A DNA stretch of 32,000 bases. It comes from Candidatus Methanoperedens sp. Its GTDB lineage: Archaea; Halobacteriota; Methanosarcinia; Methanosarcinales; Methanoperedenaceae. Below, piece by piece: positions 102 through 29,941 of the stretch. Position 1 is the first letter of the stretch, and every line of letters begins with the position of its first letter. The notes beneath the pieces are model-generated. The model saw only the letters and a program-made list of their open reading frames with translations, was not told the origin of the DNA and did not search any database. A program made the translations under genes and the position numbers. Location: positions 1-32,000 of the forward strand of contig JAPZAR010000014.1 of the NCBI GenBank assembly GCA_027460535.1, given 5' to 3'.

Positions 102-980
102 TTAGATTTTGTTGTCAGAGGATAGGGGTAAAGTTGGGTCAATTGCTTTATTGACAGCATGATATTGATGATAGGCTGCCAATTTTTTATGAATGTCCTG
201 CCGTTCCTGTTCAAAAACTATGAAATGCCTTATCAGGTCAAGCAGTATTTTTTTATTAAACATCCCCTGGAACAGCACTTCCAGCTGAGGCATGGCTGAA
301 GGTTCGATTTCTTTTCCCTCGATCGTTTTCCAGGGCATGAACCTCTCTTTGTTGGAGGTTATTGTTCCTGCTCTTGCTTCTATTCCATCGCTGATGACCA
401 ATATCTCATTGTAAGAGAATAGCGAAGGAATCTGGGATTTGTAGGTTTCGAGTTGATTAAAAGCAGTCCAGATCGTTGCATTTTCATCAGCAGGATTTTT
501 TAATTCGATGACAACCAGAGGAAGACCGTTTATGAAAAGGATGATATCAGGTCGTCTGTTATTGTTGTTTTCAAGGATTGTGAACTGATTTACTGCAAGG
601 AACTCATTATTTTGTGGGTTTTTGAAATCGAAGAGCCAGACCTTATCATTCGTGAGCTTTCCGTCTTTTTTTCTATATTCGATATCAACGCCCTCAACCA
701 GCTTCTTATGGAAGTTCTGGTTGTTAATGATGAGCTGTGGGCTCTCTGTCCTTAATACTTTTTTTATTGCTTCTTCTCGTGCTTCTTCGGGTATGTTCGG
801 ATTAATCCTATCAACTGCATCTCTTAGCCTTTCAACCAGAACAGTATCAGAATAGCTTCGCCTTTCTGCGTTTATACCATCAGGCGCAATATCAAGACCA
901 TTTAGTATTTCATAGCCTAGTTCTGAGAGAATTTCAAGAACGCCTTCTTCAACCTCTGATTCTGTCATTCCAAAGGTCAT
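102..980 (-). CDS. hsdR: Type I restriction enzyme R subunit (HsdR), N-terminal nuclease-domain fragment; truncated before the helicase motifs
   Basis: 292-aa ORF. 'RRPDIILFINGLPLVVIELKNP' fits the HsdR N-terminal PD-(D/E)xK motif. 'AAYHQYHAVNKAI' is the segment that normally precedes the Walker A helicase motif, but a stop follows at 102-104 and no GSGKS/DEAH motifs are present. The ATG at 978-980 forms an ATGA overlap with the upstream HEPN stop; an alternative ATG lies at 966-968. Confidence 0.7.
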   Translation of the reverse strand: MTFGMTESEVEEGVLEILSELGYEILNGLDIAPDGINAERRSYSDTVLVERLRDAVDRINPNIPEEAREEAIKKVLRTESPQLIINNQNFHKKLVEGVDIEYRKKDGKLTNDKVWLFDFKNPQNNEFLAVNQFTILENNNNRRPDIILFINGLPLVVIELKNPADENATIWTAFNQLETYKSQIPSLFSYNEILVISDGIEARAGTITSNKERFMPWKTIEGKEIEPSAMPQLEVLFQGMFNKKILLDLIRHFIVFEQERQDIHKKLAAYHQYHAVNKAIDPTLPLSSDNKI

Positions 981-1414
981 ACGGTTGCTCCATATTCTTT
1001 TTCAGAAATGAAAATTCTTATTTTCTCAAGAAATTCTTTTGCAGAATCCAGGGCAGCCTTTGCCTCTTTCTCGTCAATAGCGAAATCAAGCCCATAGATT
1101 GCGTCGTGCCTGAATCTTCGGTATGAATCAAGAATATTTGCTAAGGTCTCCAATTGCGAATATTTTTCCTTTAGATAAACAGGGATACATTCATGACTCC
1201 GCTCTTTTATACCATCCCTGGAAAGGATGGCTCTTGCTGCATGAAACATGGCTGTATAACTCAAGATTGCCACGACCCTATAACGATGTATGGACATATT
1301 CTCAGCCGCATCCTCGATATTGCTCCTTGAAAGCTCAAGGGAACGAAGGGCATTTTCCATATCAGGTGTTGTTCTTTTCAGCAGACCCTTCTGGAAACAT
1401 TCTGCCATTTTCAT
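977..1414 (-). CDS. HEPN domain protein (putative toxin partner of the adjacent nucleotidyltransferase)
   Basis: 145 aa, all-helical. 'AILSYTAMFHAARAILSRDGIKERSHE' resembles classical HEPN-domain proteins paired with NTases. ATGA overlaps occur at both ends (1411-1414 with the NTase stop, 977-980 with the hsdR start). Confidence 0.7.
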   Translation of the reverse strand: MKMAECFQKGLLKRTTPDMENALRSLELSRSNIEDAAENMSIHRYRVVAILSYTAMFHAARAILSRDGIKERSHECIPVYLKEKYSQLETLANILDSYRRFRHDAIYGLDFAIDEKEAKAALDSAKEFLEKIRIFISEKEYGATV

Positions 1415-1983
1415 TTTAAACCGCTCCCATGGAGCAGGATGTGATTATCAACAATCCTTTTATAAAATGCATCACCCTTTTTTGCCATTTCTCTCCATTC
1501 TGATAATTTTAATACTGATAAGCTTACCTCTTTTTCAAGTTCATCCTCCAACCTTTTTGCTGCTTTTATGAAAATTTCTTTACTGGCGCTTGTAACTACC
1601 AGAAAATCTATGTCACTTTTTTCATCAAAATTACCTTCTGCATAGCTTCCAAAAAGGGCAAGAGAGATGATATTTGAATCAATTTCAAGGAATTTCTCTT
1701 TTGGTTTTGATGAAAGCACAAAAGCGATTCCATATGCCTTTTTCAGCGGCGCAACCATGCTATTATCAGAGTCCAGCCTGTAAATATGAGCCAGTCCTTT
1801 TTCTTCCTTCAAAAGAAGTCCGTCTTCCTCGAAGGATTTTACAGCACTGCTCACGCTTGCGGGACTGACGTTGAGCACCCTCGCAAGCTGTTTTATGTGG
1901 AAAGAGGTGTTTGGATTAGCCAGGAAATGAGCCAGGATTTTCCATTTTACATATGTTCTGAATAGTTCAATCAAATGAACCAC
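1411..1983 (-). CDS. Winged-helix-fused minimal nucleotidyltransferase (MntA-like antitoxin candidate)
   Basis: 190 aa. N-terminal wHTH-like segment 'FHIKQLARVLNVSPASVSSAVKSFEEDGLL'. C-terminal NTase signature 'LFGSYAEGNFDEKSDIDFLVV' (GS...DxD). The codon at 1981-1983 is GTG, so the start is uncertain. Confidence 0.7.
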   Translation of the reverse strand: MVHLIELFRTYVKWKILAHFLANPNTSFHIKQLARVLNVSPASVSSAVKSFEEDGLLLKEEKGLAHIYRLDSDNSMVAPLKKAYGIAFVLSSKPKEKFLEIDSNIISLALFGSYAEGNFDEKSDIDFLVVTSASKEIFIKAAKRLEDELEKEVSLSVLKLSEWREMAKKGDAFYKRIVDNHILLHGSGLK

Positions 1984-2040
1984 CGTTCATTATATTAAAC
2001 GCAAGTTCAGTATAAAAATCTATCTGCGATCATCGCAGGT

Positions 2041-2100
2041 TCAATTACCCGCCCGAATCTCGCCCGACATCAGCTTCGGGGCATCGCGGATTTGAGCAGA
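2041..2100 (-). pseudogene. Remnant of an hsdS 3' end
   Basis: The minus strand reads '...SAQIRDAPKLMSGEIRAGN*'. The intact hsdS end reads '...AALRDALLPKLMSGEIRV...'. Nucleotides 2055-2080 are identical to 2875-2900 and 2081-2090 to 2907-2916, with a 6-nt gap between the blocks. Confidence 0.65.
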
Positions 2101-2123
2101 ATTTTTCCTGTGAGGGATACAGC

Positions 2124-2519
2124 TCATAGCTCTAATAGTGTATCTTTAATCCATTTTCGCAACTGCTGGACCAGTTCCAACGCTTTCTGGCGATTGAATG
2201 GTTCTTCTTCTTCCATGGGAATGTAATCGTATCGGAATTCAACTGCAAAAGGAGAGAGGGTGCGTATTTCCATAAGCGATTCTGGAAATTTTATACCATT
2301 ATCTCTAATCAGGTCTATCAGTTCCCTCAGATCATGCGTCCTGCGGTAGGGGATATTCTTCGCCATAAGAAGGGCTTTTAGCAGCTTTTCAGCGGCTTGC
2401 TGGGCATGAAAACCAATGATCTCATCTCTGACTTTTTCGTTTGAGATGATTTCCTCAAGGAGAGTCTCATCATCTTTTGATTTCGCAAGGAGTAGCTCTG
2501 CTCTCTCAAGCGGCTCCAT
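2124..2519 (-). CDS. HEPN domain protein (partner of the upstream minimal nucleotidyltransferase)
   Basis: 'GFHAQQAAEKLLKALLMAKNIPYRRTHDLRELI' is a classical HEPN helix pair. I chose the internal ATG at 2517-2519 ('MEPLERAELL...'), which overlaps the NTase end by 14 nt, over the longer ORF start at 2612. Confidence 0.7.
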   Translation of the reverse strand: MEPLERAELLLAKSKDDETLLEEIISNEKVRDEIIGFHAQQAAEKLLKALLMAKNIPYRRTHDLRELIDLIRDNGIKFPESLMEIRTLSPFAVEFRYDYIPMEEEEPFNRQKALELVQQLRKWIKDTLLEL

Positions 2520-2823
2520 AAACCACCTTCCCTTCGACAGCTGCTTCGTAAATGACCGTTCCAGGCGCATCCTTCCATTCATTATATGATTTTTCACTGA
2601 CGACAAGCACATCTACAGGTATTCGAAGGGGACTTAACACATCCCTGAGGCGCACGGTCTCCATCCTTCGGGCTTTTATTTCTTTTTCAACAACAAGAAA
2701 ATCAAGGTCGCTGCTCTCTTTAATATCACCACGAGCATAAGAACCGAAAAGGATTATCTTGACGGGATTTGCAGCCTTTTTGAGTAGTTCGACAGCTTCC
2801 TGAATAGTTCTCTTGGATATCAT
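2506..2823 (-). CDS. Minimal nucleotidyltransferase (MNT/MntA-like)
   Basis: 105 aa. 'ILFGSYARGDIKESSDLDFLVV' is the GSxxRG...DxD polymerase-beta-type NTase signature. It starts 10 nt after the hsdS stop. Confidence 0.8.
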   Translation of the reverse strand: MISKRTIQEAVELLKKAANPVKIILFGSYARGDIKESSDLDFLVVEKEIKARRMETVRLRDVLSPLRIPVDVLVVSEKSYNEWKDAPGTVIYEAAVEGKVVYGAA

Positions 2824-2833
2824 ATTCTATCTT

Positions 2834-4129
2834 CTATTTATTTTCATTATTTAAATTACTATTTGTACTGACGCGAATCTCGCCCGACATCAGCTTCGGG
2901 AGGAGGGCATCGCGGAGCGCGGCGAGGGTGCGGGATTGTTCATCATTAGCTTGGATTTTGTTATAGATTTCCCGCATATGTTCATCGAAGACTTGCAATA
3001 TTTTAGGGGATGGAACTATCATTTTATTCATATAAACCACATTTCGATTCAATCCGGGTACAGCCGAATCTGCCCCTAATGATTGCAAATCCTGTAAGCG
3101 AAGAATATAAAAAAGATAGTATATGCTTCGAATCGCTTTGGGAACTACATAAAAAGTCGTGTCTATCGGGAAAAATGCTTTATGTGACCATGTGATTATC
3201 CCGGGATTTCCCTTTCGCCCAACCACGATCCCTGGTCCCTCAACCAATTTTTCATTATGCCAACCGATCTGACCATTTGAACCATAAACAGGTACATTTC
3301 CTTTAAGGCGATTTTCATCTTTAAGTGGTTTACCATAAGCGAGTTCTAATATCTCACCTACAGTCATAACCTTCCACCCCTTGGGCACCTCCCCAAGCTC
3401 CGTCTCCAGCATCTCCCCGCCGCTCGACCTGTAGGGTTTGCCCTCCTCATCCGGGAACTCAAAATCAACGAACCAGCGCCTGAAAAGAGCCTGCCCAATT
3501 TTTTCAAGCGTGATGTTCATATGACGGTTGAGGGCGATTTTATCGTCGAGAGAGACGAGGATTGAAGCGATGTGTTCTTGTTCTTCTAAATCTGGTAAAG
3601 GAATTGGAATTTTTTTCAATGATGTTAGCGGTTGCGCTATAGCCGGTACTCCTGTTGTGGATGTGTTCTGAAGTAACAGGTATTGTCCTTGAGATGACCT
3701 CAAAAAATAAAAAACAAAATCCGGATTAGCAATTGATTCATCGCAGCTTAGCTTCATCTGGCTTTGAGAAACAACATATCGATTATACTTACTATCAACA
3801 GGTATTATACCAACTTGTCCCAGAGTTCCTCTATGGGTGATTACAATATCTTTTGGGAAGGCATTGCTTGATTTTAAGCTATCTGCTTTTGCTTCGCTAA
3901 TAAAAACAAATTCCGCTTCATTGAATCTGTCAGAATTTAGGTTCGCTCCTCTAATAACTGGTACACCCGAAGGTAAAAAATTATTCTTTGTGATATTAGA
4001 CCCAAAAGGTCCCATAGCGATAGAATAAGGTTTTTTTCCTTTGATATCATCTATTGTTTTGACATTCCAATCTTCAGGAATCTTACCTATCTCAGTTTGT
4101 TTGAATTTGGTTTCCCTCATTTCCCTCAT
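2834..4129 (-). CDS. hsdS: Type I restriction-modification specificity subunit HsdS
   Basis: 431 aa with two variable halves. These are separated by the conserved central region 'LPDLEEQEHIASILVSLDDKIALNRHMNITLEKIGQALFRRWFVDFEFP'. The ORF ends with the conserved 'LRDALLPKLMSGEIRV'. Two in-frame ATGs (4129, 4120) arise from a 9-nt tandem duplication. Confidence 0.9.
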   Translation of the reverse strand: MREMRETKFKQTEIGKIPEDWNVKTIDDIKGKKPYSIAMGPFGSNITKNNFLPSGVPVIRGANLNSDRFNEAEFVFISEAKADSLKSSNAFPKDIVITHRGTLGQVGIIPVDSKYNRYVVSQSQMKLSCDESIANPDFVFYFLRSSQGQYLLLQNTSTTGVPAIAQPLTSLKKIPIPLPDLEEQEHIASILVSLDDKIALNRHMNITLEKIGQALFRRWFVDFEFPDEEGKPYRSSGGEMLETELGEVPKGWKVMTVGEILELAYGKPLKDENRLKGNVPVYGSNGQIGWHNEKLVEGPGIVVGRKGNPGIITWSHKAFFPIDTTFYVVPKAIRSIYYLFYILRLQDLQSLGADSAVPGLNRNVVYMNKMIVPSPKILQVFDEHMREIYNKIQANDEQSRTLAALRDALLPKLMSGEIRVSTNSNLNNENK

Positions 4130-5123
4130 TTCCGACTACTTCAAAATCTGTATAATCTATCCCTTTTGATTCGTCCAAATAAGTTTTTGCTTTAACTAAA
4201 ATTTCCCTATTGACACCCTCAACATCAATGTTACATTTAACTAATGAAATTATAGTAATTAGTTCTGCACCTGTTTCTTCCTCTTTGAAATAATCTACTG
4301 AATCTATATAATCAATAACACGTGCACTTTCAATACTGCAGTCTTTTTCATCAAATATAATTGAATTTAATTGAGATAATTCCTTAGCAATATGATCTTT
4401 AAAGTAATCATTATTTACAAAATCCAAAAATTTATTCTTTTGGATTATCGAATCATAGTCTTTATTTATTTCTTCTTTTACATAATCTACCGATGGAGTG
4501 AGGACAAAATATTTTTTGACTATAGATTCAAATTCAGAAATGCATTCATCAAAACCAGAGTCGTTAGATATCATAATTACTTTATTATAATTATCTAAGG
4601 CATTATAGTTTAATATTGACTCCCATATTAGAACATCTTTAAAACCGCTATCCGATGAATTTCCTTTTTGTTTGAAAGGAGATTTTTTATCGATTGCTCT
4701 TTTAATAATATTTTTGAAAATCTCGCTCAATTGGTCATCAGGAAATTCTATTATATTTATGTTGTTTTTTAAAATAAATTCATTTAACAATTGTTTTAAA
4801 TTCTCTGAGCAATTAAAATCGTTGCCTGGTAACGTCATTCCCACAAAAGAAGTATTTGGCAACATTGATAATCTTTCTTTAATTGAATGAAAGTCTTTAA
4901 GGTCGGTTTCATATTGTTCAATTTTTTGTTTCAATAGTTCTTCAACAACAATTCTTGGAATTGCCATTTTTACCAAATCTGCTAGCTTTACCTCTTTGAT
5001 AAAATTATTAACTTGCTCAAATTCTTCACTAAACTCAAAAGAACCATATGAAGGTTCACCTTTTACTACTGATCTTAATTTATTCGTATCAAAAACAATT
5101 AAAGTCCTTTTTTCAGAACCCAT
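4092..5123 (-). CDS. PIN-like domain protein with an uncharacterised C-terminal half, embedded in the type I R-M operon
   Basis: 343 aa. The putative PIN acidic residues occur in the expected order and context: 'LIVFDTNKL', '[11 protein letters not shown]', '[11 protein letters not shown]', '[12 protein letters not shown]'. It overlaps the hsdM stop by 11 nt and the hsdS start by 29-38 nt. It is visibly AT-rich relative to its neighbours. Confidence 0.55.
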
Positions 5124-6663
5124 ACCCTAACTCCGCAAGATTCTTCCTTATCTTTACCTCAAGCTCTCTTGACCTCTCAAACTGCCCCGCCAGTTCCACC
5201 GTCAGCCTCCGCATCTTCTCCTCAAAAGGCTCGCCATCCTCTTCAATTTCTTCAGCGCCCACATACCGCCCCGGAGTCAGGATATGTCCATGCTTCCTGA
5301 TTATATCCAGCTTAACTGCCATGCAGAATCCTGGCACATCCTCATATTTCCCGCCCTCCCCGCGCCAGGCATGATAGGTGGAAGCTATCTTCCCTACCTC
5401 TTCATCAGTAAGCTCCCTGTGCCTCCTGTCCACCATGACGCCCATCTTTCTGGCATCTATGAAAAGAACCTCTCCGCGCCTGTCCCTGAACTTGTGGTTT
5501 TTCTTATCCCGCGCAACGAACCACAGGCAGGCGGGTATCATTGTATTGTAGAACAACTGCGAAGGCAACGCCACCATGCAGTCAACAAGGTCAGCCTCGA
5601 TAATGTTCTTTCTTATCTCACCTTCACCCGAAGTATTGGAAGACATCGAGCCATTTGCCAGCACAAATCCTGCTATCCCTGTAGGAGATAAATGATGAAT
5701 GAAATGCTGCACCCATGCAAAGTTTGCATTGCCTGTGGGCGGAACTCCGAATTTCCATCTAATATCTCCCTTAAGAAGCTCGCCTTTCCAGTCGCTGTCA
5801 TTAAAAGGCGGATTGGCGATCACAAAATCCGCTTTCAGTTCCTTATGGGCGTCATTCAGGAAACTCCCTTCATTATTCCACTGGACATTAGCATCAATAC
5901 CACGAATAGCAAGGTTCATCTTGCACAGGCGCCAGGTGGTCTGATTGGATTCCTGCCCATAAACAGCGATATCTCCTATTCTTCCTTCGTGAGCCTTAAC
6001 GAATTTCTCACTCTGTACGAACATGCCGCCTGACCCGCAGCAAGGGTCATAGATACGTCCTTTGTAAGGTTCAAGCATCTCAACCAGGGTTTTGACTATT
6101 GACCTTGGTGTATAGAATTGTCCACCTTTCTTACCTTCTGCATCAGCGAACTGCCCTAAAAAGTATTCATATACTCGCCCCAGAATGTCTTTGGATCTGC
6201 TTTCATAATCCCCGAGACCTATCGTGCCTATAAGGTCTATCAGCTCCCCCAGCCTTTGCTTATCAAGAGCAGGCCGCGCATAATTCATGGAAGAAAGAAC
6301 ACCTTTCAGGGAAGGATTGTCTCTTTCGACAGCATCCATAGCTTCGTCTATAATTTTACCGATGGCTGGCTGCTTTGCATTTTTTTTAAGATGCTCCCAT
6401 CTCGCTTCTTTTGGAACCCAGAAAACATTTTCTGCCCGGTATTCATCCGGGTCTTCCGGGTCTGCGCCCAAATTAGATTCCTTGATTAAAAATTGGTTCC
6501 TCTCTTCGAAAGCATCGGAGATATATTTGAGGAATATCAATCCCAGAACGACATGCTTGTATTCGGCAGCATCCATATTATTTCTTAGTTTATCAGCTGC
6601 CTGCCAAAGTTTTTGTTCAAAACCCAGATTTGCCCCATTACCGTTAGGTTTGTTTGTTGCCAT
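5113..6663 (-). CDS. hsdM: Type I restriction-modification N6-adenine DNA methyltransferase HsdM
   Basis: 516 aa. HsdM N-terminal domain ('[32 protein letters not shown]'), SAM motif I '[12 protein letters not shown]' and catalytic motif IV 'FVIANPPFN'. Confidence 0.95.
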
Positions 6664-11575: not shown

Positions 11576-12634
11576 ATGGTCGTCAGAAAAAACATATCAT
11601 TGGAAAATACCCATATTAAGAAGCTTGAGCCGATGGCCAAGAAGCACGAAGGGAACTTGAGTGCTGCAATCAGGGATGCCATAGATATAGCAGAGGCAGC
11701 ACTGCACCGTTACGGCACGGTCGAAAAAGCAATATCAAGCATTAGTGCAGAGAAAAAAGAATTGACAGCAAGGGAAAAATCCATAGAAGCAGGGAAAAGC
11801 GTGTTAGTCAGCAGCCCGATCTTCCTTTGGGCATTGAGATGGACGAAAGGGATTCCTCTTGATAAAGAAATAATAGATGAATTACTTGACCCTTTGAAAA
11901 TAAAGACCATGTCGGAACTGGATAAGCAAGTAAACAGCATGAGCAGGGAATCAGGTTGGAACTGTGAGGTATCCATATTCTGCATGGATGACATAGATCC
12001 TTCAACTGTGACAGTGGCGATATCGGGAGACAATGAATCTTACAGGGATTTCCTCGCCCAGCTGGTTGTGACGTTCCTGGTCAATAACAAATATCTTGAC
12101 ATCGACGTTATCCACAGAAGGGCCACGGCTGTTCGGATCGATTTAAAGAAAAGGGATGACGGGACCCTCCCGGTTGTCGCGAATAAATATTTCGGTGATC
12201 TGAAAACTGCAATTGACGAGTTCATATCCAGAAAAGATTTTTGGAGGGAACTTGTAGAGATATACAGTTCCGTAAATTACAATATGGTATCTTTACATAA
12301 GGACCACTATGAAGACCTGCTTGCCAGCAACACACCCCTGGATTCTGTTATTTTCGAATCCTTATCGGGAAAACACATATCAAGCATTCAGCATGCTGAT
12401 TTCCTGAAGATGTTAAAGAGAACGCACGAATCCCTGCTGTTAGTCGACAAAATAGAGATCGTTGAAAATGGAATCAATGTCTATCACCATTATAAAAACG
12501 ATAAAGCCCTGCAGAAAATCCGGGATTATTATATTTTGCTTCTCCGTGCAAACGGCCATGATTACGAGGCGAAATATTCTACAAGCCTGCTGGTCCTGAA
12601 TCATGTATGTTGCAGAAATCAAATAACTACCTAA
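11576..12634 (+). CDS. Ribbon-helix-helix (CopG-like) N-terminal domain protein, function unknown
   Basis: 352 aa. The N-terminus 'RKNISLENTHIKKLEPMAKKHEGNLSAAIRDAIDIAEAAL' has the beta-strand / helix / helix pattern of RHH DNA-binding domains. The remainder is unrecognised. Confidence 0.45.
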   Translation: MVVRKNISLENTHIKKLEPMAKKHEGNLSAAIRDAIDIAEAALHRYGTVEKAISSISAEKKELTAREKSIEAGKSVLVSSPIFLWALRWTKGIPLDKEIIDELLDPLKIKTMSELDKQVNSMSRESGWNCEVSIFCMDDIDPSTVTVAISGDNESYRDFLAQLVVTFLVNNKYLDIDVIHRRATAVRIDLKKRDDGTLPVVANKYFGDLKTAIDEFISRKDFWRELVEIYSSVNYNMVSLHKDHYEDLLASNTPLDSVIFESLSGKHISSIQHADFLKMLKRTHESLLLVDKIEIVENGINVYHHYKNDKALQKIRDYYILLLRANGHDYEAKYSTSLLVLNHVCCRNQITT

Positions 12635-13650
12635 ATAACTATCACTTTTTTTGCAATGTCTCTGCATGCAGGCATAAAATCAAAAGGATTCAAAGACGGA
12701 AAAGTATCTATTAAACAAATACTCCCATCTGTTACTGCTCTGCCAAGTTTCCTGATATCGCCATGATATACCATTATCTCTGTCGCACCACATGCTTTTG
12801 CAATGAGTACAGGTTCGTCGCCTATTAATTTATTTTTTTCATAATCCTGTTTTTGGAACTCAATTTTTACGCCGAGGATTTCTGAATTCGCCATGACGTT
12901 CAAAACAGCATTTTCGACAGCAGGAAGCCATGCATCGTTCAGTATCACCTTTTTTGCCCCTGCAAGTGCGCACAAAAGCCCAAGCGTTCCCGGGCCGCAA
13001 AAACCATCCACAACTACGGCATTGTTAAGTTCGCCTTTCAGGTATTGCTCCTCGATTTTTTTAATTTTGGTATTCGTGAACTCTATGTGTATCCTGGATT
13101 GATTCTTATAAACACATAACTCACCAAAAGATGAGGAAACAACATCACACCGCATATCGCAGCCTGAAAGTAATTCATAGGTATGTGGTTTTCTGTCGGT
13201 ATCCAGTATTCCCACGCTCCGGGATTGCGGGCCTGTTCTTTTGACCACCCCTTTAATTTCCGGTACATCAGCCATTATTTTATCTGCTACGTCCTTTGAA
13301 ACTGAATCCATGATAAGGACAAGATTCTTGCGATCAAGCCTTGGGGGGTATGGCACCTGAAAACCGAAAGCTATGAGAGGAGTTCCAACCTCTTTGAGTG
13401 CTGCATCTTCTGGAAAAATCCCATTTTCTTTGAGTATTGTAAGCACATGTCCGATCACAAGATCAAGATGTCTTTTGCCGCATTTTGTGCACCGTCCAGT
13501 GTTTTCGTCGATCTTTTCACGAAACGGCTTGTTCTTATTGAACTTGGGGTCGGGTGGGCATGAACTGCATGCCATGTACATGCCGTAGATCTCATCAAGC
13601 ACTTTTTCAGCAGGTAATACGCAATTCCCGCCGCAGGTGGGACATTTCAT
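12631..13650 (-). CDS. Zn-ribbon-containing Trm1-like class I SAM-dependent methyltransferase (putative)
   Basis: 339 aa. N-terminal CxxC pairs ('MKCPTCGGNC', 'CSSC', 'CTKCGKRH'). C-terminal 'VVDGFCGPGTLGLLCALAGAKKVILNDAWLPAVENAVLNVMAN' resembles the SAM-binding core of Trm1-type methyltransferases. Confidence 0.5.
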   Translation of the reverse strand: MKCPTCGGNCVLPAEKVLDEIYGMYMACSSCPPDPKFNKNKPFREKIDENTGRCTKCGKRHLDLVIGHVLTILKENGIFPEDAALKEVGTPLIAFGFQVPYPPRLDRKNLVLIMDSVSKDVADKIMADVPEIKGVVKRTGPQSRSVGILDTDRKPHTYELLSGCDMRCDVVSSSFGELCVYKNQSRIHIEFTNTKIKKIEEQYLKGELNNAVVVDGFCGPGTLGLLCALAGAKKVILNDAWLPAVENAVLNVMANSEILGVKIEFQKQDYEKNKLIGDEPVLIAKACGATEIMVYHGDIRKLGRAVTDGSICLIDTFPSLNPFDFMPACRDIAKKVIVI

Positions 13651-17644: not shown

Positions 17645-18019
17645 TTATTGCTGATGGGGTTTCAGCTTATCTTCACCCGTTTTAATATCCTTTAAAACCT
17701 GGTTGATCAACTTCTTGGCATTTTCAAGATGCTGGGTACCGCTGCTTGCTAATTGCGTGAAATTGTTCTGGACAAGAACTTCATTTTCCTGTAGCAGGTA
17801 GACGTAATAAATGAGGACACTCCAGTAGACCCCAATGCCTAAAAACACAGCTGCCCCAATCAGAATCAATTGGTTGAAGATCAGGTAGGTGGTCATTCCG
17901 AGAGGATACAATTTCATGATAGCGATCCAGAAGCTGTACATTATTCCCAAACCAAGGATTATTGGTACAATCCATATTATTAAAAGGTTATTTTTGCTTA
18001 GTCTCATCCGTACACCCAT
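17645..18019 (-). CDS. Small membrane protein (three hydrophobic helices plus a soluble C-terminal tail)
   Basis: 124 aa. 'LLIIWIVPIILGLGIMYSFWIAI', 'TTYLIFNQLILIGAAVFLGIGVYWSVLIYYVYLL', then a polar C-terminus. Confidence 0.5.
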   Translation of the reverse strand: MGVRMRLSKNNLLIIWIVPIILGLGIMYSFWIAIMKLYPLGMTTYLIFNQLILIGAAVFLGIGVYWSVLIYYVYLLQENEVLVQNNFTQLASSGTQHLENAKKLINQVLKDIKTGEDKLKPHQQ

Positions 18020-18156
18020 TCTTAATTAGCAAATTCACTATAAATATCTGTCGGATAAGGCCACAATACATTAATATACAGTCAGGTCTAATATCGTTTT
18101 ACAGATGTGGAGTTAGTATTTGTTGTGAAATAAATACGACCTGGAGGTCTTAAATC

Positions 18157-18615
18157 ATGAGCCTGGTTAAAACAGGAGACAAAGCGAAAGATTTCACTTT
18201 AAGCGACCATGACGGCAAAGAGATACAACTGTCAGCCCTGGAAGGCAAAAAAGTGCTTCTCTCTTTCCATCCTCTTGCATGGACGAGCGTGTGTGCAGAG
18301 CAGATGAAAGCACTTGAGAAGAACCGCAGCAGATTTGAAAAATTGAACGCAGTGGCACTTGGCATCAGTATAGATACAGTGCCTTCGAAAAAAGCATGGG
18401 CAAAAGAGCTTGGCATTAAGAAAACTAGTCTTCTATCTGATTTCTGGCCGCACGGTGAGGTTGCCGGGCTGTATGGCATATTCAGAGAGAAGGATGGGTT
18501 TTCCGAAAGAGCGAACATAATTGTTGACGAGAGCGGGCAGGTGAAATTCGTTAAGGTCTATCCTATCGCACAACTGCCGGATATCGAGGAGATCATCAGG
18601 GCTCTGGAAAAATGA
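18157..18615 (+). CDS. Peroxiredoxin (AhpC/TSA family, Bcp-like thiol peroxidase)
   Basis: 152 aa. 'KKVLLSFHPLAWTSVCAEQ' contains the PxxxTxxC peroxidatic-Cys motif. A GGAGGT Shine-Dalgarno-like sequence lies at 18143-18148. Confidence 0.85.
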   Translation: MSLVKTGDKAKDFTLSDHDGKEIQLSALEGKKVLLSFHPLAWTSVCAEQMKALEKNRSRFEKLNAVALGISIDTVPSKKAWAKELGIKKTSLLSDFWPHGEVAGLYGIFREKDGFSERANIIVDESGQVKFVKVYPIAQLPDIEEIIRALEK

Positions 18616-26634: not shown

Positions 26635-27195
26635 TCAGTATTTTCTGCGATCTCTGTGTACCCTTGGATATGTCACCAGATTTTTAATCGTAATCTCTGG
26701 TATTTTTTCTTCTTCCTCGGCAATTTTAGCCACAATATCCAATAAACCTAATTCCTTATCAAGGTCTAAAATCAACATCTCAAGACAAATATTAGTTTGC
26801 TTTTCTTTTTCAAGTCTCTCAATTGCTTTCTGATACCTGTTATTGACCTCATCGAGTTTATCCTTAAAAGTCTTTGCTGATTCTTCATATTCGGTGATTA
26901 AGGATGTTTTCCTCTCAATCTCTTCCTTTAGCTTATCACTAATCCTTTGCTGTTTCCTGATCTCCCCTTCCAAACTTGAAGCCCTTTCCCGTTCTTTTTC
27001 AAGAATATTGTTGATTTCTCTGATCTCATTCTTGAATTTCTCTATAGTTTCCTCCTGTTTCTTGTTTGGAATGCCTATTTCTTTGCTGCTCTCCCCAAGC
27101 TCCTTAATGATTTGCTGTTGCTTCTCGATCAACTTTTCAAGTTCTGAAGTCTTTCTCCACCAAAAAATACCAGTAATCCATTTTTTAAAAGCCAT
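26635..27195 (-). CDS. Coiled-coil protein with an amphipathic, Trp-rich N-terminus
   Basis: 186 aa. 'MAFKKWITGIFWWRK' followed by about 130 aa of heptad-like E/K/L/I-rich sequence. It starts 11 nt after the upstream HEAT-like gene. Confidence 0.55.
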   Translation of the reverse strand: MAFKKWITGIFWWRKTSELEKLIEKQQQIIKELGESSKEIGIPNKKQEETIEKFKNEIREINNILEKERERASSLEGEIRKQQRISDKLKEEIERKTSLITEYEESAKTFKDKLDEVNNRYQKAIERLEKEKQTNICLEMLILDLDKELGLLDIVAKIAEEEEKIPEITIKNLVTYPRVHRDRRKY

Positions 27196-27205
27196 AAATT
27201 TGACT

Positions 27206-27814
27206 CTATACGTTATATTTCGATTTTATCTCCCTGAGGCTTTCTATATATTTTGGATTTTTCTTGAGGACATAAGAAATTCGACTCTGGAGATCCGCTC
27301 CCTTTTGCGTGAGTTGCTCCGTTTCCTTAATCTTCTGATCCTTCTCCTTAATTCTCCTGAGAAGGTCTATGGCCAAATGCGCAACAGTATCGCTTTCATG
27401 CAGCAATGCTTTCTGTAAGTTCCTGTAATCTCCCACAATTTCGTGATCAACTAAGACGTCAAGAATTTTTAATGAATCGATTGCAGCAGCAGGTGTGGAT
27501 AATGCCTGATTGCAAAAAAGGGGATACAGGGATTTCCATACATCAGCCTTTACATCAGCCTCTTTATTCACTACGTCAGGAGACATATCCCTAAGAATAT
27601 TTAACGAGTTGCGGGCAATATTGATATTTTTATGGCACAGGAGTCTCTGCATTTCCAGGAAGTTTTTCCTTTGAACGCCGAGATCTGCAAGAATCTTAAT
27701 ATAATTTAAAGTTTCGCGAACTACCGTCTCGTCCTCCGATTTTAGTAAGTCGTTCAGAAATGGATAGATTGTAGCATTAGCTACCGATTGAATGGATTTT
27801 CCTTCAAAAATCAT
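27206..27814 (-). CDS. HEAT/ARM-like repeat protein (two ~75-aa modules) with a C-terminal coiled-coil tail
   Basis: Both modules end in an 'LxH(K/E)xxxxAxxxLxxLRxI'-like signature ('LLCHKNINIARNSLNILRDM', 'LLHESDTVAHLAIDLLRRIK'). The ATG at 27814 is preferred over the GTG at 27820. It is a paralog of the N-terminus of the 28491-29714 gene. Confidence 0.6.
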   Translation of the reverse strand: MIFEGKSIQSVANATIYPFLNDLLKSEDETVVRETLNYIKILADLGVQRKNFLEMQRLLCHKNINIARNSLNILRDMSPDVVNKEADVKADVWKSLYPLFCNQALSTPAAAIDSLKILDVLVDHEIVGDYRNLQKALLHESDTVAHLAIDLLRRIKEKDQKIKETEQLTQKGADLQSRISYVLKKNPKYIESLREIKSKYNV

Positions 27815-27816
27815 AC

Positions 27817-28314
27817 TCACTCAAAAGCGTGAATCTCTCTTGCAATATTCATGCTTCTTATTATATCCAGTGCAAGATAGGCAATTTGCTTATTCTTGTG
27901 CAACATCATCTGCTCCACAGGATTAAATAGAATCTCGCTGTTTTCAGCTTCATTTGATAATGCACTCGTTGCGTTCATGGCATTAAGTACTATATCGTCA
28001 GAACCGGATTTGAAGCATGTGACCAGGAATGGGATTACTGCATCCATAAGAATTTTCCTATATTCACCTGGAGCAAGCGGTTTCACCTTGCCTTCTGCCT
28101 CACGTATCTGCCTCAGTACATCCAGGGATACATAGGCAACATCTTTGCTCTTATGCTGCAAAGCATTGTTAAGAACCGGGGTTAAGTCGCTTAGAGGACT
28201 ATAATAAACAAGCGCTTTTGCAGCCTTCAGAGATTCGAGTGCAAGTTCACTATCTGAAGAATTTATACAGTGTGCTAAAAGTGGCACTACATTTTTTTCG
28301 ATAACATTTTCCAT
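27817..28314 (-). CDS. HEAT/ARM-like repeat protein (two ~75-aa modules)
   Basis: 165 aa with an internal duplication. 'VVPLLAHCINSSDSELALESLKAAKAL...LQHKSKDVAYVSLDVLRQIREAEG' pairs with 'VIPFLVTCFKSGSDDIVLNAMNATSAL...MLHKNKQIAYLALDIIRSMNIARE'. GGAGG lies upstream of the ATG. Confidence 0.6.
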   Translation of the reverse strand: MENVIEKNVVPLLAHCINSSDSELALESLKAAKALVYYSPLSDLTPVLNNALQHKSKDVAYVSLDVLRQIREAEGKVKPLAPGEYRKILMDAVIPFLVTCFKSGSDDIVLNAMNATSALSNEAENSEILFNPVEQMMLHKNKQIAYLALDIIRSMNIAREIHAFE

Positions 28315-28356
28315 CAGTCATTCCTCCGAACTAATATGATAGATATTCTTTTTAAG

Positions 28357-28363
28357 ATATAAA
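28357..28363 (-). promoter_or_regulatory. TATA box candidate (TTTATAT on the minus strand) for the HEAT-like gene cluster
   Basis: The minus strand reads 'taacaTTTATATcttaaaaag', about 45-50 nt upstream of the ATG at 28314. A homologous block with TTTATAC occurs at 29914-29920. Confidence 0.4.
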
Positions 28364-28490
28364 TGTTATCATTAAAACAAGATAATTTAATGAAATTGCC
28401 AGAAAGGTGCAATTCATGTACCTGTGATGGTTGCACTGGGTTAATTCTAATCGGCGCCACTACTTAAGTGTAAGATCTGCAGCTCAGCTA

Positions 28491-29714
28491 CTATAAACCG
28501 TGGGCCTGAATAGTTGAACCTTGTTTGTATTTCAGGAGTGAAAAAACCTTTTTATCTTTTTTATGGCGTCTTAGCTGCTCTATAAACAACAATGACTTTG
28601 TGTGAACTTCAAGCAGATTCCATGTTGATTTTTCTACATAGTAATCTATTCCGTTCGCATAATCAGCCATCTTTGAGCTGACTTCTTCACTTATCCAGCC
28701 AATTTCAACATAATATTCAAGTATATCGGATAAGTTATTTCGCCCTACTCTTTCCATCAGGAATTTGACCCAGTTCAATAGAATGATGGAAGTCTCAGGC
28801 GTATTATCCAGAAAATGCAGCCTTACTTTTTGTTCTTCAATGTATTGGGAATCTTCTACCTTTTTTTGCGCGAGTTGGGGGATCGAAGAAATCTCGGACG
28901 TTGATATATGCCAGCTTGGTTTGACGCGTTCCAAAACCTCTCCTGCAGCTTTTTCAATCCGAGCAGTTTCATTTACAATATTTGAATTCACTAATTTTTT
29001 CAATTCTTCCATACTATCTTCAAGAGTTTTGAATTTATCGTCATGGTCCTCTGTCAGATTCGAAGGTACTTCTGGGGTCTTCCGACACAGATCTTCGACC
29101 TTTTCTTCAATATCTGCCAGCTTTTTAGATACAACTTTTTCAACCAGATCATTTTCATTTACAATATTTAAATTCACTAATTTTTTTAATTCTTCTATAC
29201 TATCTTCAAGAGCTTTGAATTTATTATCATAAGCCTGTGTCAGATTTGAAGGTACTTCTTGGGTCTTCCGACACAGCTCTTCGACCATTTCCTCGATATC
29301 TGACACCTTTTCCATGGAATCTTCTTTCTTTAGTAGATTATAAATCCGACTCTGAAGATCTTTTTCCATTTGTATGAGCTGCTCTGTTTTGTTAATTTGT
29401 TGATTTATTTTCAATGGAACTTTTTCTATGCCTTCATCACTGCCCTCACTGACACTTACTCCCTCTATTCTTGTGTCTGTGGTCAATCCTTTAATTTTCC
29501 TGAGAACATCCAATGCCAGATGCGCCACTTCATCGCTTTTATGCAGCAATACTTTTTCTAAATTTATATAATCTCCCACAACACCATAATCAATTAAAAC
29601 ATCAAGAATTTTTAATGATTCTTCTGCAACATCCGGTGTGGATAATGCCTGATTGCAAAAAAAAGGATACATGGATTTCCATACATCCGCCTTTACTTCA
29701 AACAACTGCCTCAT
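28491..29714 (-). CDS. HEAT-like module + duplicated coiled-coil + archaellum FlaD/E (ArlD/E)-type C-terminal domain protein
   Basis: 407 aa. The N-terminus is paralogous to the second module of the 27206-27814 gene. The middle holds a 62-aa tandem repeat. The C-terminus 'ILLNWVKFLMERVGRNNLSDILEYYVEIGWISEEVSSKMADYANGI' matches the conserved core of archaeal FlaD/FlaE proteins as I remember it. Confidence 0.65.
   Translation of the reverse strand: MRQLFEVKADVWKSMYPFFCNQALSTPDVAEESLKILDVLIDYGVVGDYINLEKVLLHKSDEVAHLALDVLRKIKGLTTDTRIEGVSVSEGSDEGIEKVPLKINQQINKTEQLIQMEKDLQSRIYNLLKKEDSMEKVSDIEEMVEELCRKTQEVPSNLTQAYDNKFKALEDSIEELKKLVNLNIVNENDLVEKVVSKKLADIEEKVEDLCRKTPEVPSNLTEDHDDKFKTLEDSMEELKKLVNSNIVNETARIEKAAGEVLERVKPSWHISTSEISSIPQLAQKKVEDSQYIEEQKVRLHFLDNTPETSIILLNWVKFLMERVGRNNLSDILEYYVEIGWISEEVSSKMADYANGIDYYVEKSTWNLLEVHTKSLLFIEQLRRHKKDKKVFSLLKYKQGSTIQAHGL
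28970..29341 (-). repeat. In-frame tandem duplication, two copies of 186 nt (62 aa), inside the ArlD/E-domain gene
   Basis: 'catttacaatattt(g/a)aattcactaattttt...' starts at 28970 and again at 29156. The first ~150 nt of each unit are highly similar. Protein units: 'SDIEEMVEELCRKTQEVPSNLTQAYDNKFKALEDSIEELKKLVNLNIVNE' and 'ADIEEKVEDLCRKTPEVPSNLTEDHDDKFKTLEDSMEELKKLVNSNIVNE'. Confidence 0.9.
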
Positions 29715-29786
29715 CCCTTGAGTGTAGTAACTTATTCGGAACCTTATTTGTTACAGATTTTATGGATTTTCCATTCAAAAGCATAC

Positions 29787-29877: not shown

Positions 29878-29941
29878 TCAACCTCAAATTAATATTATAG
29901 ATATCCTTTTAAGGTATAAATTTTATCATTAAATTAATATC

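Follow-up and report, generated by a model that had tools for sequence, protein, structure and literature searches.

The window studied here is a stretch of 32,000 nucleotides of Candidatus Methanoperedens sp. DNA (contig JAPZAR010000014.1, positions 1 to 32,000), whose minus strand carries four consecutive genes, P1 to P4. Comparison with related loci indicated that P1 is a lineage-specific chimera, in which the 5′ portion of P3, taken from a duplicated copy, is joined to the 3′ two-thirds of an arlC/D gene of the archaellum, and that the locus belongs to an accessory cassette specific to Methanoperedens. We tentatively propose that P1 is an adaptor linking the ArlD/E docking site with an assembly formed by P2, P3, P4 and a surface protein, and we give this reading, which is based on sequence data, a probability of roughly 0.45. 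A preliminary description of this DNA had reported four co-directional genes that share building blocks, and four ORFs (open reading frames) were found as described:

28491..29714, minus strand: P1, the annotated ORF of 407 aa, a chimeric ArlD/E paralogue.
27817..28314, minus strand: P2, 165 aa, two modules, a predicted armadillo (ARM)/HEAT-like solenoid of 8 helices.
27206..27820, minus strand: P3, 204 aa from GTG, with two modules, a linker and a conserved C-terminal tail.
26635..27195, minus strand: P4, 186 aa, coiled-coil-like.

With an overlap of 4 nt between P2 and P3 and a gap of 10 nt between P3 and P4, P2-P3-P4 were considered a tight operon, the distance from P1 to P2 being 176 nt. 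Gene callers start P3 at the ATG at 27814 (202 aa), which is probably the true start rather than the GTG. A protein identical to the window copy is present in the metagenome-assembled genome (MAG) named Candidatus Methanoperedens sp. under the locus tag O8C66_04915.

P1 consists, in this order, of a P3-type module, a disordered linker, two 62-aa helical units, a further disordered linker and an Arch_fla_DE domain. The module, the helical units and the domain were located as follows:

29481..29687, minus strand: module of P1, HEAT/ARM-like with four predicted helices, residues ~10-78; pLDDT (predicted local distance difference test) 83-93 in the AlphaFold2 (AF2) model; aligns with the other four copies of the module.
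28949..29311, minus strand: tandem 186-nt (62-aa) helical unit of P1; period 186, 2.0 copies and 87% matches in Tandem Repeats Finder.
28569..28832, minus strand: Arch_fla_DE (FlaD/E) domain of P1, residues 295-382; 83.3 bits with PF04659 (cut-off 21, E=1.2e-23); AF2 pLDDT ~80-92.

The last of these scores bears out the FlaD/E domain that had been recognised at the C-terminus of the 407-aa protein. Database searches with P1 retrieved two groups of proteins, the first made up of ~16 close relatives of 370-655 aa with Arch_fla_DE only, and the second of hundreds of Methanoperedens proteins of ~360 aa with both FlaC_arch and Arch_fla_DE. In the Pfam scan, FlaC_arch (PF05377) was identified neither in P1 nor in its orthologues P0002-P0016, whereas it was present in the canonical proteins P0017-P0120. 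Residues 1-130 of P1 match P3 from module 2 through the linker to the first helix of the tail, and residues 131-407 match the C-terminal two-thirds of canonical ArlC/D, that is, one 62-aa helical unit, a disordered linker and the FlaD/E domain. With the canonical protein of the same MAG (P0071), P1 showed 46% identity on the helical unit and 68% on the FlaD/E part, and for the FlaD/E domain the identity was ~73%. Furthermore, 25 columns of the FlaD/E core were invariant over 47 sequences that included both P1-type and operon-encoded ArlC/D proteins. The pattern of the canonical helical unit (DIEKKVEEL...PSNL...DYDNKFK.LE..IEELKK.V) is recognisable in the consensus of the P1 unit (DIEExVEEL..EVPSNL..YDNKFKxLEDSxEELKKLVN), of which P1 orthologues have 1, 2, 3, 4 or 6 copies and canonical ArlC/D only one. 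The canonical C-terminal helix (SKLERDLDKIIRSSE) is lost from P1. Hence, P1 has in common with the canonical ArlC/D/E ring proteins Arch_fla_DE, its 25 invariant core positions and the preceding 62-aa unit, but it differs from them by an ARM/HEAT-like module in place of FlaC_arch, by having the unit in 1-6 copies and by being encoded away from the arl genes. These comparisons indicate that the recombination which gave rise to P1 replaced FlaC_arch by a P3-type module and retained the helical unit and Arch_fla_DE with all the invariant residues, and that the unit was amplified to 1-6 copies after the chimera had been formed.

Two further elements were identified 5′ of P1:

29746..29873, minus strand: decayed junction between the 3′ end of P2 and the 5′ start of P3; 77% identity over 133 nt (E 4e-23) with the window's own P2/P3 junction by blastn.
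29880..29934, minus strand: AT-rich non-coding element, 93% identical to its counterpart in locus L011 and 88% to that in L007, conserved also in L008; likely the promoter region of P1.

At the protein level, the remnant ('HKNKEIAYLALEYDR...YAFE') gave a weak signal for a P2 pseudogene (E ~0.01), and it was the DNA comparison that settled the question. In L011 a 76-aa fragment of P2 is still found at the corresponding site. In addition, P1 orthologues begin with MIFNGKSIKSVANKFLNKLL..DETVVEVKAD, which is the N-terminus of P3 with module 1 deleted. To judge from the alignments, the junction relic is what remains of the P2-P3 tandem copy that supplied the 5′ end of P1. A tandem duplication of the form P2-P3-P2-P3-P4 was observed in L012 (4685-7902) and in L013/L019 (5354-8570). 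The first P3 copy of L012/L013 is devoid of the conserved NPKY...KSKY tail, and this arrangement likely represents the precursor state of the chimera. In a tree of FlaD/E domains the P1 family grouped as one clade, whose sister group comprised all the canonical ArlC/D proteins of Methanoperedens, and therefore a single origin within the lineage was deduced.

The module that P1 shares with P2 and P3 is a four-helix unit of ~70 aa, present in five copies across the three proteins. All the copies quoted in the preliminary description were found verbatim in the sequence, and their homology went beyond chance, residues 6-130 of P1 being 55% identical to residues 89-187 of P3 (E=4e-37) and the P1/P2 and P2/P3 pairs giving E values of 1e-7 to 2e-8. 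With the profile of the P2 family, members of the P3 family were also retrieved from a library of 1.84e9 proteins (E 2e-14 to 8e-11), and 6 columns were invariant in the alignment of the five copies. The module had been labelled HEAT-like. P2 exceeded the Pfam cut-off for Arm (26.0 bits against 20.6) over a single 26-residue stretch only and remained below those for HEAT (17.5 against 23.5) and HEAT_2 (17.5 against 27.7). The HEAT_2 score of P3 was 13.8 bits, no match was obtained for P1 with the HEAT, HEAT_2 and Arm profiles, and HEAT_PBS (PF03130) gave no match up to E=1 in any of the four proteins. On the other hand, the AF2 model of P2 (pLDDT 88.7) consists of 8 helices and its top Foldseek matches were designed armadillo repeat proteins (4dba, 5mfg; E 1e-4, probability 1.0). 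P2 has its fold class in common with these proteins, but the TM-score was only ~0.4 and the identity 14-19%, and the units of P2 are four-helix modules of ~70 aa, whereas ARM repeats have 42 aa. The HEAT-like label thus holds for the predicted fold class only. An armadillo-class fold, as modelled for P2, suggests a protein- or peptide-binding role.

Only 19 matches to the P2 profile were obtained in the 1.84 billion proteins, and the 11 with E<=1e-10 were all of Methanoperedens type. Of the remote matches outside Methanoperedens, the few scanned with Pfam were for the most part common repeat proteins of the HEAT_2/HEAT/HEAT_PBS type. No Pfam or NCBIfam family corresponds to the module, which agrees with the earlier impression that the family had not been described. 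Long coiled coils had also been proposed. P4 and the middle of P1 gave weak matches to SMC/Rad50 coiled-coil segments and AF2 predicted long helices with low confidence. These results lend indirect support to a coiled-coil-like character of both.

Database searches yielded 48 homologues of P2 (51-96% identity), and every one with a named organism belonged to Ca. Methanoperedens. Scans for the locus gave 10 loci in GTDB species genomes and 8 in JGI metagenomes, and no relatives of the cassette were detected in IMG/VR contigs or in PLSDB plasmids. At all the ~15 loci P2, P3 and P4 were present in that order, and P1 precedes them only in the window and in L006, L008, L011, L023 and L024. The flanking genes differ from genome to genome, with the exception of a gene for a giant surface protein. 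The survey that had been recommended for the module profile ended in strong matches that are all of Methanoperedens type and in a conserved neighbourhood. P2-P3-P4 is the conserved unit, and P1 an optional add-on.

Outside the modules, the C-terminal tail of P3 is conserved (LQSRIxxVLKKNPKYIESLREIKSKYNV, or LQSRI..VLKKNPKYVESLKEIKSKY; tail peptide NPKYVESLKEIKSKY). P4 orthologues, of 116-268 aa, have a variable middle between a conserved aromatic/basic N-terminus (MAFKKWITGIFWWRK; family pattern M[AS]F[KR]NWI.RIFWWKK; N-terminal peptide MAFKKWITGIFWW) and a conserved C-terminal block (NRYQKAIERLEKEKQTNICLEMLILDLDKELGLLD in the window, LEMLILDLDKELGLMD in the family). Parts of the cassette also occur as natural fusions, namely P2 with the linker and tail of P3, the N-terminal half of P4 with a P1/P3 module, and P3 with a long transmembrane (TM) coiled coil. 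These shuffled forms comprise P0183 (233 aa), P0177 (449 aa) and P0147/P0148/P0155/P0168/P0170, and some of them may be assembly chimeras.

Several other associations of the cassette were considered. PADLOC identified only ZorA and JetC segments, at E >= 6.6e-5, which were attributed to coiled-coil noise, and the identity of the locus as a defence system was rejected. An origin from a mobile element or virus was also discarded, given the empty IMG/VR and PLSDB searches, the absence of any integrase nearby and the fact that, in all genomes, the cassette has a low G+C content at third codon positions (GC3) as an intrinsic feature. In MAG STD1_6, a lone P1 (L007, 941-7743) is divergent from a cluster of PilB3-type T2SSE/T2SSF/Pilin_N genes and from a gene for a 544-aa coiled-coil protein. 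Since this context was seen at L007 alone, a link between P1 and the type-IV-pilus-like cluster was rejected as coincidence. No relationship exists between the 544-aa protein and the 546-aa one encoded beside the canonical ArlC/D gene, and the 246-aa neighbour of P1 in L007 was discarded as a relative of P2-P4, as it is an unrelated secreted Gly-rich protein. A Roadblock/LC7 gene lies near the triplet in two genomes: directly upstream and divergent in L021 (7225-8840, with a YchF/OLA1-type GTPase), and ~8 kb off in L022 (18325-18498); this may be chance synteny. A small Thioredoxin_3/glutaredoxin-like gene follows the cassette, or the lone P1 orthologue, at a short distance in L020 (11342-11683), L022 (11436-11774) and L007 (11116-11778).

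A large ORF in the same orientation ends ~100 nt ahead of the cassette at 11 distinct loci. In the encoded giant proteins, of 966 to >3000 aa, a signal peptide is accompanied by Ig-like repeats, which are variable (PKD, Big_9, He_PIG), by a PGF-pre-PGF domain, which is conserved (TIGR04213, 136 bits), and by one TM helix with a cytoplasmic tail of ~60 aa. The tail (RYKK...DADAWYNRGFDLYEQGKYDEAIKAYDKAI) includes a basic stretch and one TPR motif, or two such motifs in the case of L011. Such features identify the giant protein as a predicted type-I membrane surface protein. It has the PGF-pre-PGF domain in common with the surface proteins of NCBIfam TIGR04213, but the TM helix and the cytoplasmic single-TPR tail stand in place of the PGF-CTERM sorting signal. 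The gene is missing at L006 and L021, and tblastn did not reveal it in the window either. When the conserved C-terminal 268 aa of the giant protein were used to search for it in the same MAG, 27 proteins were returned, none of them from this MAG; giant proteins were poorly recovered by this search.

ArlC/D/E are understood less well than any other part of the archaellum motor of euryarchaea, and we know of no partners of these proteins beyond ArlH and CheF. Methanoperedens is an environmentally important methanotroph, not available in pure culture, whose life cycle alternates motile and aggregated forms. Its archaella have been proposed to act in extracellular electron transfer, and roles in attachment are suspected. 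It had been recommended to look for archaellum genes elsewhere in the genome, and a complete arl cluster was found in the same MAG, on another contig (L003). This cluster encodes ArlJ (607 bits), ArlI (737 and 718), ArlH (249), ArlG (127), ArlF-like proteins, an archaellin and, beside arlJ, its own FlaC+FlaD/E protein, P0071 (O8C66_13645). The locus is thus not part of an arl operon extending just outside the analysed DNA, as had been considered. The two ArlI (FlaI) proteins are tandem full-length paralogues (L003, 12965-16189; 737 and 718 bits against NF058587), and the cluster also includes three ArlF/G-like genes and an unannotated 296-aa gene. As stated before, no archaellin, arlF-J or che genes are present among the window proteins, nor are pilus genes. 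At none of the loci examined is an arl gene adjacent to the cassette, and no che, cheF or DUF439 gene was found beside the ~15 loci or in the window.

The adaptor proposal assigns a partner to each end of P1. In Haloferax volcanii, ArlD and ArlCE are docked through ArlH and have, in addition, a polar factor as binding partner (PMC7534055). By analogy, the FlaD/E end of P1 may still dock on ArlH and the cytoplasmic motor ring, or on the polar factor bound by the Haloferax proteins. The N-terminal module of P1 would bind the partner of P3 module 2 within the assembly of P2-P3-P4 and the surface-protein tail, so that P1 would either couple or compete for the partner of P3. The amplified helical unit would act as a spacer that sets the distance between both ends. 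P2-P3-P4 would assemble in the cytoplasm in association with the surface-protein tail, their ARM/HEAT-like modules would offer protein- or peptide-binding surfaces, and the aromatic/basic N-terminus of P4 could be either a membrane-binding helix or a ligand of the modules. A bolder version, which we consider rather improbable, is that the giant protein and P2-P3-P4 constitute a trans-envelope scaffold tethered by P1, by way of the ArlD/E domain it has kept, to the archaellum motor ring or the polar cap, with the spacer tuned by the copy number of the unit. If true, it would be the first molecular candidate linking an adhesin or S-layer-type (surface-layer) structure of the cell surface to the euryarchaeal polar organising centre.

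Several observations weigh against the adaptor proposal. P1 could act independently of P2-P4, because it is absent from most cassettes (present at 6 of ~15 loci) and, in MAG STD1_6, P1 and the triplet do not share a contig (L007 and L017/L021, respectively). The adjacency of the giant protein is kept within one genus only and could be due to shared ancestry, not function. In the window itself the giant gene is absent, the 5′ end of P1 is frameshifted, the linker of P3 has a deletion and the stop of P4 is shifted, all of which is compatible with decay. Moreover, the AF2 model of full-length P1 was poor (pLDDT 58.8), with confidence only at the module (10-78) and the FlaD/E domain (300-390), and Foldseek gave nothing significant with it, the FlaD/E part included; outside the two end domains the model is too poor. 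A sequence search of the PDB with P1 did not find any solved FlaD/E relative.

A first alternative is that P1 is a variant subunit of the archaellum ring that co-assembles with canonical ArlC/D and tunes motility, P2-P4 being mere donors of a domain. A precedent exists in H. volcanii, where ArlD2, a second ArlD encoded close to but outside the arl operon, has no motility phenotype (PMC7534055). Like P1, ArlD2 is an extra ArlD-type paralogue off the core operon and is presumably dispensable for basic archaellation. It was compared by its description alone, which mentions no domain replacement, whereas P1 is an independent, genus-specific chimera. The variant subunit would also fit the 73% identity of the FlaD/E domain with the canonical protein of the same genome and the preservation of all its invariant residues, the occurrence of P1 alone in L007 and the conserved upstream element that P1 has of its own. 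However, P1 lies directly 5′ of P2-P3-P4 at 5 of 6 P1 loci, and its N-terminal module remains ~60-70% identical to P3 module 2 across genomes, which suggests that a common partner has been retained. We regard the variant subunit as unlikely.

A complete co-option was considered less likely still. In this case, the FlaD/E part of P1 would serve as an oligomerisation or ring-forming domain in a scaffold anchoring the surface protein, with nothing archaellar about it. The home context of the cassette behind a giant PGF-pre-PGF/TPR protein, the absence of adjacent arl genes at every locus and the loss from P1 of both FlaC_arch and the canonical C-terminal helix are in agreement with it. Nevertheless, the strict conservation of the FlaD/E core with the canonical paralogue argues for a conserved binding partner, and both the window and L006 have P1 yet no giant protein nearby.

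It must also be considered whether the copy in the window no longer functions and is decaying, as what is left of an accessory or mobile cassette that evolves fast. The 407-aa ORF is truncated at its 5′ end by a +1 frameshift, and the original beginning can still be read out of frame:

29698..29784, minus strand: original 5′ end of P1, out of frame, encoding the orthologous N-terminus MLLNGKSIKSVTNKVPNKLLHSRDEAVV*.

The frameshift is a 1-nt insertion in the T-run 29700-29702 (GTTGTTTGAAG in the window, GTAG-TTGAAG in orthologues) and deprives P1 of its first 28 codons. The extra T is absent from orthologues and was present in all three assemblies with the locus (ENA, Logan, NCBI), two of them from different accessions; it may be genuine, or the assemblies may have a homopolymer error in common. 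The annotated ORF begins anew at an internal ATG, whereby the whole module and the downstream parts are kept. In addition, the P3 linker between module 2 and the tail is ~26 aa shorter than that of orthologues, and P4 continues for 13 aa past the usual stop (26635-26676; …PEITIKNLVTYPRVHRDRRKY). The GC3 of P1-P4 in the window was 0.33-0.42, against 0.48-0.58 in the flanks.

These lesions, the pseudogene relic of the P2/P3 junction, the missing giant gene, the low GC3 and the flanks that differ in each genome would all suit a remnant. On the contrary, the four ORFs are intact, their ratios of nonsynonymous to synonymous substitution rates (dN/dS) of 0.21-0.40 correspond to purifying, though fairly relaxed, selection, and everything 3′ of the start of the P1 module is maintained thanks to the internal ATG. 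Neither an integrase nor any viral, plasmid or defence-system match was found, and the GC3 of the cassette is low in every genome compared (window, L006, L019, L021, L022), with 0.29-0.43 against 0.45-0.58 in the flanking housekeeping genes. Candidate causes of this composition are low expression, the K/E/N-rich composition of the proteins and a foreign origin; the GC3 of the giant surface-protein gene upstream is host-like, ~0.45. We see a non-functional remnant as improbable; the copy looks intact enough to be functional, yet relocated and slightly eroded.

The reading favoured in the preliminary description, a Rosetta-stone fusion recording in one polypeptide a contact between HEAT proteins and ArlCDE in chemotactic switching, is very improbable, since, in spite of the HEAT/ARM-class solenoid of the module, of remote profile matches that include proteins also scoring for HEAT_PBS and of the che genes carried by some Methanoperedens MAGs (PMC11264602), none of the four proteins matched HEAT_PBS, no locus had a che or cheF neighbour, the module has its home behind a PGF-pre-PGF protein, and its family is confined to one genus while ArlCDE and CheF are widespread (10.64898/2026.04.22.720090). 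The interaction in Halobacterium salinarum invoked for that reading was correct as regards the CheF proteins, which contact FlaCE/FlaD, but the HEAT_PBS protein OE2401F bound CheD and CheF1 and not FlaCE/FlaD (Schlesner 2009; PMC2666748). OE2401F, which is encoded in che/fla regions and has been proposed to act near the archaellum base, is like the modules described here a small all-helical repeat protein of the HEAT class, from which these modules differ in the lack of a HEAT_PBS match and of a che/cheF neighbourhood. The alternative already offered in the preliminary description, a repurposed ArlD/E scaffold in another complex, fits better. The chimeric nature of P1, the conservation of P2-P3-P4 as a unit and the optional presence of P1 had escaped notice in that description.

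ArlD/E paralogues outside the operon, such as ArlD2 of Haloferax, and fusions and fissions of ArlC/D/E, which are common (10.64898/2026.04.22.720090), were already known. We did not find described the replacement of FlaC by an ARM/HEAT-like module, the spacer of variable copy number or the association with a surface-protein cassette. The domain-swapped paralogue provides a testable handle on the partner of the FlaD/E domain alone and on what else can attach there. Furthermore, a previously undescribed, genus-restricted cassette is defined, comprising a TPR-tailed surface protein, two ARM/HEAT-like proteins and a coiled-coil protein. The significance of these results is limited by the narrow distribution of the cassette and by a host without pure culture.

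As regards the rest of the window, the neighbours of the locus are housekeeping or defence genes:

P1 side: methanogenesis-marker genes, with MCR_C/mmp7, DUF2113, a BadF-type ATPase and others.
P4 side: a RimI-type acetyltransferase, TruD, PurA, CDC48 and a radical-SAM protein.
More distant: Feo/FTR1 iron uptake, PurL and a type I restriction-modification operon.

Four ORFs of 122-352 aa had no Pfam match at E<=1e-4: 11576-12634 (plus strand), 12631-13650, 17645-18019 and 18150-18518 (minus strand). The restriction-modification operon (102-6663, minus strand) consists of an N-terminal fragment of HsdR at the window edge, HsdS and HsdM, and inserted among its genes are those of two HEPN proteins, a MarR-HTH/nucleotidyltransferase (MNT-like) protein and a PIN_12 protein. 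The GC3 of HsdR and HsdS was low, 0.38-0.40.

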